Source: Oscillospiraceae bacterium (GTDB taxonomy: Bacteria > Bacillota > Clostridia > Oscillospirales > CAG-382). From it: a stretch of DNA of 64,000 nt. The position numbers were made by a program, and so were the translations under genes. The stretch lies in contig SVRF01000006.1 of assembly GCA_015064945.1 (NCBI GenBank), positions 4,074 through 68,073 of the forward strand. The letters are read 5' to 3'. Under the pieces are notes generated by a model, which was not told the DNA's origin, made no database searches, and saw nothing but the letters and a program-made list of their open reading frames with translations. Positions 46,733 to 52,201 of this stretch are shown one piece after another. Each line of letters begins with the position of its first letter. The first letter of the stretch is position 1.

Positions 46733-46909
46733 TTACATACCTCCTCGCTGGTTGTCGGGGTTTCCAAGAAGTAGTCAGACTTCTTAGGGTGATTTTATTA
46801 TATACTGAAATTTGTGATAAAGTAAACCGCAACTTCCGCAAAATAACGGTAGGTATTTGAACAACCGAAGAAGAAAAATTTATTTAAAAAATTGCGCTTG
46901 CCGAGCTTG

Positions 46910-50110: not shown

Positions 50111-50296
50111 AGTATCATCTCCAATTCAAAATTTATCGCTTTGATATGTTTATGCCCTCAGTGATGTCGGTGGAGGTTTGTCTCCTCTTAGATTTAGAGT
50201 ATCATATTTATTTCCGAATGTCAATTTTTTTCAGGAATATAATGCTATTTTCGGGTGGTCTAAAAAATTTTTTTGAGTAGAGGTGAAAAGATGTGC

Positions 50297-50330
50297 GCTA
50301 AAAAAGGCCATCGGAGAACCAATGACCTTT
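50297..50330 (-). terminator. Terminator of rtcB
   Basis: AAGGTCAT...ATGGCCTT stem whose single non-WC pair is a G-U wobble only on the minus strand; followed by TTTTTTAG. Confidence 0.6.
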
Positions 50331-50337
50331 TAAAAAA

Positions 50338-51510
50338 TCAGCAAGCTTTGAAATTGTATATCGGCCTTATAATCTCAATATCCGAGACTGTTTCGTCTAT
50401 AAAACCAAGTATCCGCCCAGGGGATTTGTATGCCATCGGGCACTCGTCAATGGAACCCTCGTTCGCCGTTGTCGTGAATATTCCTTCCATTTGGCGCCTA
50501 TAATCCTCGACGGTAAAAGCGTACTTAGCCTCTGTTCTGCTGCACGCACGTCCTGCACCGTGAGGAGCGGAAAAATTCCAATCGGGGTTTCCTTTACCCG
50601 TGCCGAGTACTGCCCCATCTCTCATATTAAGCGGTATTATTACCCTTTCGCCCAAGCGTGCAGAGATGGCACCCTTGCGAAGTATCATATGCTCTGTATC
50701 AATGTAATTGTGAACGCACGAAAACCTATCCGTTACGGTAAGTCCCATTTGCTTACATATCAACTCTGCAATAGTCCTTCTGTTCAAATCGGCGAAAGCG
50801 GTCACAACGGTCAAATCGTGGAGGTAATCGTCGAAAAGCCGTCCTTCAAGAATCGCCTCTTCCCGTTTTACCTTTACAGCACCCTTTTCGGATTTAGAAA
50901 AGTAATATAAGCCTGTATCCTTTGCATCGTAATAGCTTTGTTTTGTGCGTTTGCGTTGCTTTTTGCATTGATAGCGGTAGGCCTGCTCTTGATAATAGCT
51001 TGCAACATCACTGCCCAACTGTCTTGAGCCCGAATGGATAACAAGCACAAGTTCACCGCTTTCTGTCCTGTCCACTTCAATAAAGTGATTACCTCCGCCA
51101 AGAGTTCCAAGACTGCGGAGCGCTCGTTCTCGATCTACATTAGCTTTGCAAATCAGGCTGTCGAGGTCAAAGGCGTCAAGAGGGGTAGCGTGTATCTTTG
51201 CACCGGCGGGAACGTGAGAATGTATCATACCGTCAAGCTTTTCCAAATCAAGCTCTCGCTCAGCCAAAAACACAACCTCCATACCGCAACCGATATCAAC
51301 ACCCACCAGGGCAGGTGCAATTCTCTTTGATACGGTCATAGTCGTTCCCACTGCAACGTGTTTACCCGAATGGGTATCGGGCATTATGCGTATCTTGCTA
51401 TCGGAGTAGGCTTCTTCTCGCAGCAGCGACGATATCTGTGTTTTGGTTGACTTGTCAAGTTTATCAGTGAAAACAATTGCCGAGTTTCTTTTTCCTTGTA
51501 GTTTGATCAT
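50338..51510 (-). CDS. rtcB: RNA 3'-phosphate/2',3'-cyclic phosphate ligase RtcB
   Basis: MPDTHSGK, DIGCGM, GGGNHFIE and SAPHGAGR metal/GMP-His motifs. Confidence 0.9.
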   Translation of the reverse strand: MIKLQGKRNSAIVFTDKLDKSTKTQISSLLREEAYSDSKIRIMPDTHSGKHVAVGTTMTVSKRIAPALVGVDIGCGMEVVFLAERELDLEKLDGMIHSHVPAGAKIHATPLDAFDLDSLICKANVDRERALRSLGTLGGGNHFIEVDRTESGELVLVIHSGSRQLGSDVASYYQEQAYRYQCKKQRKRTKQSYYDAKDTGLYYFSKSEKGAVKVKREEAILEGRLFDDYLHDLTVVTAFADLNRRTIAELICKQMGLTVTDRFSCVHNYIDTEHMILRKGAISARLGERVIIPLNMRDGAVLGTGKGNPDWNFSAPHGAGRACSRTEAKYAFTVEDYRRQMEGIFTTTANEGSIDECPMAYKSPGRILGFIDETVSDIEIIRPIYNFKAC

Positions 51511-51606: not shown

Positions 51607-51635
51607 ATTATATATTATTGCATACAGCTTGTCAA
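51607..51635 (-). promoter_or_regulatory. Promoter of rtcB
   Basis: Minus strand TTGACA (51635-30), 17-nt spacer, TATAAT (51612-07); perfect consensus. Confidence 0.7.
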
Positions 51636-51694
51636 GTTTATCTTCTCCAAATTATTCTAAAATAACTTACCTTATTGTTTCTACCCTTCGCCCG

Positions 51695-51897
51695 TTTGCG
51701 GTGCCCGAAAAATCTTCGCATCCGTGGGTGCTTGATTTTTATCGGGGTCCCCGGGAAGCCGTTAGACTTCGTGGGGTGACTCGACCGTTGCACCCAAAAC
51801 TCCTCGCTACATCCGCCACAGGCGGCGCTTCGGAGTTTTGACCTCCGAGTTATTCGCCCTTCGGGCTCATAACCCGTCGGTCATCGCACCAACCAAA
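51695..51897. ncRNA. Unclassified multi-helix RNA candidate (strand unresolved)
   Basis: Long-range pairing 51695-51704/51886-51897 encloses helices 51726-31/51790-95 (with hairpin 51749-76), 51795-803/51832-40 (with hairpin 51813-25) and 51845-51880. There is no coding potential. Confidence 0.35.
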
Positions 51898-51913
51898 CTT
51901 CAGAACCAAAACG

Positions 51914-51945
51914 AAAAACCACCCTGTTTGGGTGGTTTTTCATTT
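51914..51945. terminator. Bidirectional terminator (tRNA operon on the minus strand; possibly the RNA candidate on the plus strand)
   Basis: AAAAACCACCC-TGTTT-GGGTGGTTTTT with T-tracts on both strands. Confidence 0.75.
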
Positions 51946-52022
<77 letters not shown>

Positions 52023-52070: not shown

Positions 52071-52159
52071 TGGTGCCGGAAACCGGGCTTGAACCGGTAC
52101 GAGATTTGAGTCTCACGGGATTTTAAGTCCCGGGCGTCTGCCAATTCCGCCACTCCGGC
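52071..52159 (-). tRNA. tRNA-Leu (TAA), long variable arm, CCA encoded
   Basis: Acceptor GCCGGAG/TTCCGGC, anticodon loop CUUAAAA, variable arm hairpin, T-arm GGTTCAAGCC. Confidence 0.9.
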
Positions 52160-52172
52160 GTCAGCAAAGAGT

Positions 52173-52201
52173 ATTATAACCCAAAGCACTTCGTTTGTCA
52201 A
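52173..52201 (-). promoter_or_regulatory. Promoter of the tRNA-Leu/tRNA-fMet operon
   Basis: Minus strand TTGACA, 17-nt spacer, TATAAT; the -10 ends 14 nt before the tRNA 5' end. Confidence 0.7.

Follow-up and report, generated by a model that had tools for sequence, protein, structure and literature searches.

A structured region between rtcB and a tRNA operon in an Oscillospiraceae genome, read as a mosaic of hairpin repeats at a recombination hot spot

The 64,000-nt stretch of Oscillospiraceae DNA analyzed here (the window) contains, between rtcB and a tRNA operon, about 200 nt of dense helices (positions 51695 to 51897) for which the first-pass annotation could name no class. The question raised by this locus is whether the helices belong to one RNA with a tie to the neighboring rtcB gene, as had been suggested, or have another source. 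In the best reading of the data the region is not one RNA gene; it is a mosaic situated immediately 3' of the tRNA-Leu/tRNA-fMet operon, in a recombination hot spot. The excess pairing is real, and its source is a string of separate hairpin repeats, not one global fold.

The rtcB gene (390 aa; 50338 to 51510, minus strand) matched Pfam RtcB with an E value of 1.5e-55. Its consensus promoter (51607 to 51635, minus strand, 12 of 12 positions matching) lies downstream of the structured region, and of the A-C element described below, when the minus strand is read, so the region is not the rtcB leader, as had been argued before. A weaker promoter with 9 of 12 matches was found by the promoter scan on the plus strand (51629-51658). 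On the other side of the region, the terminator scan and a palindromic self-match located a bidirectional intrinsic terminator (module T; 51913 to 51945, the scan itself giving 51913-51941), which has a 12-bp stem, a T-run on the plus strand and TTTTTCGTTTT in the minus-strand reading, the features of an intrinsic terminator, and which is common to the tRNA operon and any plus-strand reading. Next to it are an initiator-type tRNA-Met (CAU) (51946 to 52022) and a tRNA-Leu (UAA) (52071 to 52159), both on the minus strand and both identified by ARAGORN and Rfam, followed by the consensus promoter of the tRNA operon (52173 to 52201, minus strand, 12 of 12). The two promoters and the terminator that had been named as the flanking signals of the region were all borne out.

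In 51695-51897, no ORF exceeded 70 aa and none gave a family match. When the whole window was searched against Rfam 15, the two tRNAs alone passed the gathering threshold, and a permissive search gave no match with E < 0.01 within 51695-51897, in agreement with the earlier statement that no class could be named. The folding energy of the plus strand was -80.7 kcal/mol in RNAfold (z = -3.3), and none of 200 shuffles folded equally well; the minus strand folded better than the plus strand (-89.9 kcal/mol, z = -3.9). The region is noncoding and strongly structured, as had been annotated, and shuffled sequences folded worse on both strands. The nested architecture that had been drawn, with a closing helix around three domains, was returned by RNAfold as the minimum-free-energy structure of the plus strand. 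Its helices were present where they had been placed, and every pair was Watson-Crick or G-U apart from two small slips: C51795 had been assigned to two helices, and 51754/51771 is a G-G mismatch.

The global fold was not upheld by comparison with relatives. In seven orthologues, no pair of this structure was changed on both sides. The closing helix (51695-51704/51886-51897) had uncompensated mismatches in four of the seven and was missing in G004b and G023, and the GGGTGC/GCACCC helix of domain 1 had an A-C mismatch in four of the seven. Both helices compete with a pairing of 51697-51707 with 51782-51792 that is conserved across the A-C family. A tRNA-like molecule with an acceptor-like closing helix ending in ACCA was also considered and was rejected, as the helix is not conserved outside four copies from the genus.

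The modularity of the region was demonstrated by BLAST against its own genome and 60 relatives, in which the 200 nt fell into pieces, each with an independent distribution. Module A is the first hairpin. Its 5' arm and variable tip (CCGTTTGCGGTGCC-CGAAAAA-tip-GATTTTT) occupy 51693 to 51740, and its 3' arm, TCGACCGTTGCACCC (51781 to 51795), pairs with 51697-51707 in the RNAalifold and covariance-model structure. Module B (51739 to 51780, plus strand) is a REP-like hairpin repeat of 40-41 nt with the consensus TTGTCGGGGTCCCCAAGAAGTCGTCAGACTTCTTGGGGTGA and sits in the T-run of hairpin A. Module C (51795 to 51840, minus strand) is the second hairpin of the A-C element, and module D (51841 to 51900, minus strand) is a hairpin from an inverted duplication of the tRNA-fMet anticodon arm.

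Module B, the 40-nt inner hairpin of domain 1 in the first-pass annotation, was missing from all six orthologous copies (two in G004 and one each in G005, G006, G012 and G023). These orthologues, from the same genus and one sister genus, have the order A-C-D-T, with A joined directly to C. Since B is missing from the orthologous copies, it is a recent insertion, and domain 1 is not an original part of the structure as had been supposed. In the 2.0-Mb genome of the same organism, nhmmer found 46 full-length copies of B in 38 arrays, seven of which contained two to three tandem units, and tandem copies were present in relatives as well. Inspection of the listing by eye showed that most arrays lie directly 3' of a strong hairpin and T-rich run, that is, of an intrinsic terminator. 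As a short imperfect palindrome with many copies, intergenic and often clustered, B has the properties of REP/BIME repeats. A further copy is located in the window at 46752-46792 (G000:C33:50825-50865), and some of the tandem arrays have a 43-nt period. The search for a RAYT-type transposase associated with B returned a single IS200-like Y1_Tnp gene in the genome, on a contig without B or A-C and flanked by neither. This gene (G000:C55:34560-34916; L115:1423-1902) encodes 159 aa and matched Pfam Y1_Tnp with 134 bits. We propose that B is a second, unrelated selfish repeat that targets hairpin-plus-T-run sites and that hit the first hairpin later. In the window it landed after the hairpin-plus-T-run inside module A, an imitation of its usual terminator site.

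When B is set aside, the A-C core of the window (51693-51740 and 51781-51840; covariance-model match 51689-51844, 68.6 bits) is one copy of a noncoding element of about 115 nt, a single strand of which folds into two hairpins. The layout of the element is CCGTTTGCGGTGCC-CGAAAAAA-variable tip-TTTTTTCG, followed by ACCGCGGCACC, a variable stem of 9-15 bp, TCGCTgnATCCGCCACnGGCGGCGCTC and the other side of the stem. The exact 21-mer CCGTTTGCGGTGCCCGAAAAA occurred in 40 loci of rumen and gut Clostridia MAGs, labeled Acutalibacteraceae, Oscillospiraceae, Faecousia and the like. Searches with a covariance model trained on 32 copies gave matches in 67 of 151 genomes at the level of the family. At the level of the order, 49 of 151 sampled genomes, from 19 of 30 families, carried 1 to 12 copies each; most of these genomes are incomplete MAGs, so absence here means not found in those searched, and related genomes are not independent samples.

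The structure of the A-C element covaries. In 69 aligned copies, 93.3% of the cells were paired compared with 73.7% in shuffles, and 21 of the 31 pairs were changed on both sides. The covariation score of 0.437, against 0.114, was reached by none of 500 shuffles, and slid controls gave at most 0.105; the alignment was fitted to the model, which somewhat favors the structure. Per-sequence, alignment-free folds of the C hairpin in 32 members agreed with it. Module C consists of a variable outer stem of 9-15 bp, a conserved internal loop and an apical CCGCC-ACA-GGCGG, and in 32 family members the outer stem differs in sequence and keeps its complementarity. This hairpin had been described as domain 2, and it is truly conserved and covarying. 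The A6/T6 helix was considered as a terminator or attenuator and was rejected: the run flips to T/A in many members, indicating that it is a helix and not a U-tract.

No Rfam family matched the element in 18 loci with intact copies, nor in L069 with E values up to 10. All Rfam searches otherwise returned only the expected tRNAs, two unrelated riboswitches and a Gut-1 RNA beside the element in L038. The literature search found no paper describing the element; general papers on tRNA fragments were its useful part. The A-C core is an unnamed structured element, both real and widespread. A variant at L039:101-200 has a hairpin A that is a near-perfect palindrome (CCGTTTGCGGTGCCCGAAAAAACC ... GGTTTTTTCGGGTACCGCAAACGG), lacks hairpin C and carries inverted copies of another repeat module on its flanks.

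The element is linked to tRNA genes in a fixed orientation. tRNA sequence was present in 73 of the 138 flanks of the 69 copies, confirming that the tRNA neighborhood, part of the position that had been called suggestive, does matter. In 65 of these 73 flanks the tRNA was on the strand opposite to the reference plus orientation, indicating that the minus strand of the window is the tRNA-sense strand of the element. Members of the family typically sit within or next to a partial duplicate of the tRNA: an intact and a partial tRNA flanked the element at Met, Ser(CGA), Ser(GCT), Glu and Pro loci, and the fragments were 95-100% identical. DNA that has integrated into a tRNA gene is known to leave this pattern, an intact and a partial copy of the tRNA in direct orientation (PMC9897764).

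The layout differed with the tRNA. Loci of the Met type, read on the tRNA-sense strand, contain an intact tRNA-fMet, the terminator, D', C', A' and a 3' tRNA-fMet fragment that is 100% identical to the gene. The window copy is of this type on the minus strand, with tRNA-fMet, terminator, the tRNA-derived hairpin D, hairpin C and hairpin A; its left tRNA fragment is missing. Loci of the Ser(CGA) type begin with a strong promoter and nt 1-18 of tRNA-Ser, followed by C', A' and about 12 nt more of the tRNA, which snap back into a hairpin, then by a spacer of about 65 nt and the intact tRNA-Ser. With the promoter in front of the truncated tRNA, the element precedes the intact tRNA in the direction of reading. 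The second A-C copy in the same genome as the window (G000:C48:523-638) is of the Ser(CGA) type and lies in the leader of tRNA-Ser(CGA), with the duplicated tRNA 5' piece on its far side. L105 contains tRNA-Leu, nt 1-31 of tRNA-fMet, C', A', 30 nt and the intact tRNA-fMet, and in L076 a tRNA-Glu copy is interrupted in the T-loop and followed by the intact gene. The element-tRNA junctions varied among the D-loop, the anticodon stem or loop, the variable loop and the T-loop. In a Clostridia MAG, the Gut-1 RNA (RF01706, 58.8 bits; L038:2003-2077) lies about 40 nt past a displaced tRNA-fMet fragment, near an A-C copy.

Module D contains TCGGGCTCATAACCCG, which is identical in 16 of 16 nt to the anticodon arm of the adjacent tRNA-fMet, and ends in a tail, CGCACCAACCA, similar to the tRNA 3' end. 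Across the terminator, module and tail together match the reverse-complemented 3' half of the tRNA with 76% identity over 90 nt. The D hairpin is the tRNA-fMet anticodon arm together with its inverted copy. On the tRNA-sense strand, D reads GGGTTATGAGCCC-GAA-GGGCGAATAACTCG, and two other families (L140 and L143) have this hairpin with an unchanged layout around it, indicating that the Met-type unit is old or has spread as a block.

The tRNA-sense strand, minus in the window, is also favored as the relevant strand by the hairpins themselves, although the question is not settled. The C hairpin folded better on the minus strand in 31 of 32 members, by a mean of 3.8 kcal/mol, and had 500 pairs (23 G-U) on this strand versus 473 (8 G-U) on the plus strand. 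Read on the minus strand, C and D both have tandem G-A/G-A in their conserved internal loops. In helices 3 and 4, A-C mismatches, which are G-U on the minus strand, numbered 27 versus 10 for G-U. The strand evidence was mixed: helix 1, in the RNAalifold register, has an invariant U-G on the plus strand, which an alternative register (GCGGT/ACCGC) removes. The U-G of helix 1 and a G-U pair in the B hairpin suit a plus-strand RNA. Most of the strand evidence nevertheless speaks against the stand-alone plus-strand RNA that had been proposed, and the region of its promoter is not conserved; the left flank of other copies is a tRNA fragment.

Among the relatives compared, rtcB was present at this locus only in the genome of the window (G000) and in G005. 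The element is followed by other genes in G004 and G006, and neither the element nor rtcB is present at the locus in G001 and G008, so the suggested link to rtcB did not hold. Different cargo genes lie downstream of tRNA-fMet in different species. In G005, a truncated A (…GGTGCCCGAAAAA/GATG…, the slash marking the junction) is on one side of rtcB and the next A-C-D-T unit on the other. The junction GGTGCC(C)GAAAAA/GATG recurs in G004, G005, G008 and G012, and the left boundary motif of the rtcB segment in the window, GAGTAGAGGTG-AAAAGATG (50276 to 50300, plus strand), is like the 5' half of A fused to GATG. In the form GGTGCC(C)GAAAAA/GATGC (or GAGTAGAGGYGCCGAAAAAGATGC), this junction forms the start of different cargo segments downstream of tRNA-fMet, including that of rtcB (window 50276-50300; L048:1785-1810 and 3505-3530; L037:3399-3425; L108 of G008). 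Judged from its sequence, it appears to join the 5' half of hairpin A to other DNA. The rtcB gene is apparently cargo, carried in a variable islet that has A-type sequence at its borders, and not a partner of the element.

Presence or absence of the element is polymorphic. At the tRNA-fMet locus, genomes of the genus have either the full unit or less of it: G011 has only a diverged A and G009 a stub, and G001 and G008 have nothing there. In some genomes, A-C has multiplied to 7-12 near-identical copies, and tandem arrays occur. In G228 and G277, 7-10 copies that are nearly identical lie away from tRNAs at unrelated sites, surrounded by other repeat modules and often at contig ends. In G228 and JAZRFL, inverted CTCCCTC motifs bound a larger composite containing A-C. 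Multicopy composites were located at L128-L134 (G228) and at L040, L050, L060 and L073 (JAZRFL), and the CTCCCTC-bounded composite has one hairpin with a different sequence in every otherwise near-identical copy.

The first-ranked explanation, to which we assign a probability of roughly 0.55, is that A-C is a nonautonomous mobile structured element at a tRNA hot spot. Such an element would integrate in or beside a tRNA gene and leave one intact and one truncated tRNA copy in direct orientation, and its folded strand might act as DNA or as RNA. As A-C encodes no protein, it would have to be moved in trans. The near-identical copies at unrelated sites, the tandem arrays and the varying content of the tRNA-fMet locus within the genus speak for mobility. 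On the other side, no recombinase or transposase was found to recur beside about 60 copies; all-against-all ORF clustering of 40 loci gave only spurious ORFs across the repeats and no linked protein gene. Pfam detected no recombinase among the cargo genes, no integrase was found inside the insert, and no ORF recurs beside the copies. Terminal inverted repeats and target-site duplications, by which a MITE would be recognized, were not seen at the tRNA-linked copies; the inverted CTCCCTC motifs of G228 and JAZRFL bound the larger composite. The range of junction positions, from D-loop to T-loop, would be unusual for one site-specific integrase. Phage and plasmid collections contained no A-C match. 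Viral contigs contained two, one of them beside tRNA genes at a contig end. At the end of one IMG/VR contig (L149:11600-12300), three tandem A-C-like units lie beside tRNA-Lys and tRNA-Gln; these units may be the host flank of a prophage.

The second-ranked explanation, which does not exclude the first and which we regard as possible but clearly less probable, is that A-C, with D in the Met layout, is a functional structured RNA of tRNA transcription units, made from the tRNA-sense strand. It would form the leader of tRNA-Ser(CGA), the spacer that parts tRNA-Leu from tRNA-fMet, or a trailer, and processing of the tRNA precursor would release it or act on it, the partial tRNAs being by-products of the spread of the module between tRNA loci. 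The strong promoter upstream of the truncated tRNA in the Ser(CGA) type, the position between tRNA-Leu and tRNA-fMet in L105 and the tRNA-sense orientation in 65 of 73 flanks are consistent with this, as are the tandem G-A/G-A loops of C and D and the better fold of C on that strand in 31 of 32 members. Where divergent genomes have a copy at one and the same tRNA position, with about 70% identity, compensatory changes affected 18 of 31 pairs in Ser-type copies and 15 of 31 in Met-type copies; a cis function of resident copies would account for such change at a fixed position at least as well as mobility would. However, a strong terminator stands between tRNA and element at Met-type loci, including the one in the window. 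The element is also dispensable in close relatives (G001 and G008) and decaying in G009 and G011, the window copy is interrupted by B, and bursts of near-identical copies occur away from tRNAs.

More tentatively still, A-C (with D in the Met layout) might represent a new class of small structured element inside tRNA transcription units, in one of two variants. It could be a site for recombination of folded single strands, by which tRNA genes are split and duplicated and cargo such as rtcB is captured; by analogy, this would be an attC-like system without an integron. Alternatively, it could be a stable RNA cut from tRNA precursors with a role in tRNA supply.

The whole stretch might also be the decayed scar, the attL and attR arms, of a larger integrase-borne island or prophage once present in tRNA-fMet, its hairpins having no activity of their own. 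A segment flanked by intact and partial tRNA copies and different cargo downstream of tRNA-fMet in different species would suit such a history, but we consider it improbable. The same 115-nt unit was found with no fewer than five kinds of tRNA as well as at non-tRNA sites, in every case with no integrase, and its structure is kept by compensatory change across 19 families, which is not expected of a neutral scar. Least probable of all is one stand-alone plus-strand small RNA of about 280 nt with a functional tie to RtcB: it has the nested plus-strand fold in its favor and is bracketed by the 9-of-12 promoter and the strong terminator, but the comparative data have largely refuted it already, since the fold lacks covariation and has mismatches in the closing and domain 1 helices, the inner hairpin of domain 1 was inserted recently, rtcB is absent beside the element in G004 and G006 (as it is from the locus in G001 and G008), and no match to Y RNA, YrlA or another Rfam family was found.

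What appeared to be a new rtcB-linked RNA is therefore reclassified as a patchwork of repeats. One of them is a common, covarying two-hairpin element of about 115 nt in a gut and rumen Clostridia order, absent from Rfam and linked in a fixed orientation to tRNA genes that are split or duplicated. If mobile, it would be an unusual protein-less element targeting tRNA genes and would explain many of the "tRNA fragments" in these genomes; if an RNA, it would be a new passenger of tRNA operons. In either case, its presence points to hot spots of gain and loss of cargo genes such as rtcB.

Several known systems resemble parts of this locus. Group I introns occur in bacterial tRNA-fMet and tRNA-Leu(UAA) genes and have a P3-P9 catalytic core. 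A-C likewise interrupts copies of exactly these tRNAs, sometimes at the anticodon loop, but it consists of only two hairpins, and an intact gene lies alongside the interrupted copies. A group I intron or an intron-containing tRNA was rejected on the lack of a core and of an Intron_gpI match and on the truncated, decayed or mutated state of the interrupted copies. Y RNA and YrlA accompany rsr-rtcB operons, as in Salmonella and Deinococcus; they combine a Ro-binding stem with a tRNA-like domain and are encoded beside rsr. The region in the window is also structured, noncoding and adjacent to rtcB and contains tRNA-like pieces. In contrast to Y RNA, however, its tRNA-like piece is a palindromized anticodon arm and not a mimic of the T and D arms, and the idea of a Y RNA or YrlA with an rtcB operon was dismissed because the adjacency to rtcB is not conserved and no Rfam family matched.

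Folded single-strand recombination sites are represented by the attC sites of integrons and the attP(+) hairpin of the CTX phage. As in attC, hairpin A has two conserved paired boxes split by unpaired bases and a variable tip, and the sequence of A-C varies while its structure is kept. By analogy, the hybrid junctions (…GGTGCCCGAAAAA/GATG…) suggest a crossover inside hairpin A. The core sequences of attC are R''/R', RYYYAAC ... GTTRRRY; the A-C consensus, CCGTTTGCGGTGCC ... ACCGCGGCAC, differs from attC in lacking this core and also has no conserved protein neighbor.

Genomic islands and prophages in tRNA genes reportedly fall into sublocation classes, described by Williams in 2002. As at A-C, a complete and a partial tRNA lie in direct orientation on either side of the insert, with junctions at the anticodon loop, the T-loop or the variable region. 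The A-C insert differs in being only about 200-300 nt long and without an integrase, in occurring at several different tRNAs and in duplicating, in some copies, the 5' end of the tRNA and not the 3' end.

The REP/BIME repeats known from enterobacteria and pseudomonads, like the BOX elements of Streptococcus pneumoniae, are imperfect palindromes of short length that occur between genes in tens of copies. They are often arranged in tandem or as mosaics of different modules, and their stems are kept by compensatory changes. A-C is longer than REP/BIME (about 115 nt), has two different hairpins and is tied to tRNA genes. Module B differs from REP/BIME in its specific position after terminators and in flanking no RAYT-type transposase. 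In other respects the likeness of B to REP/BIME and BOX is good, and it extends to the mosaic nature of the region.
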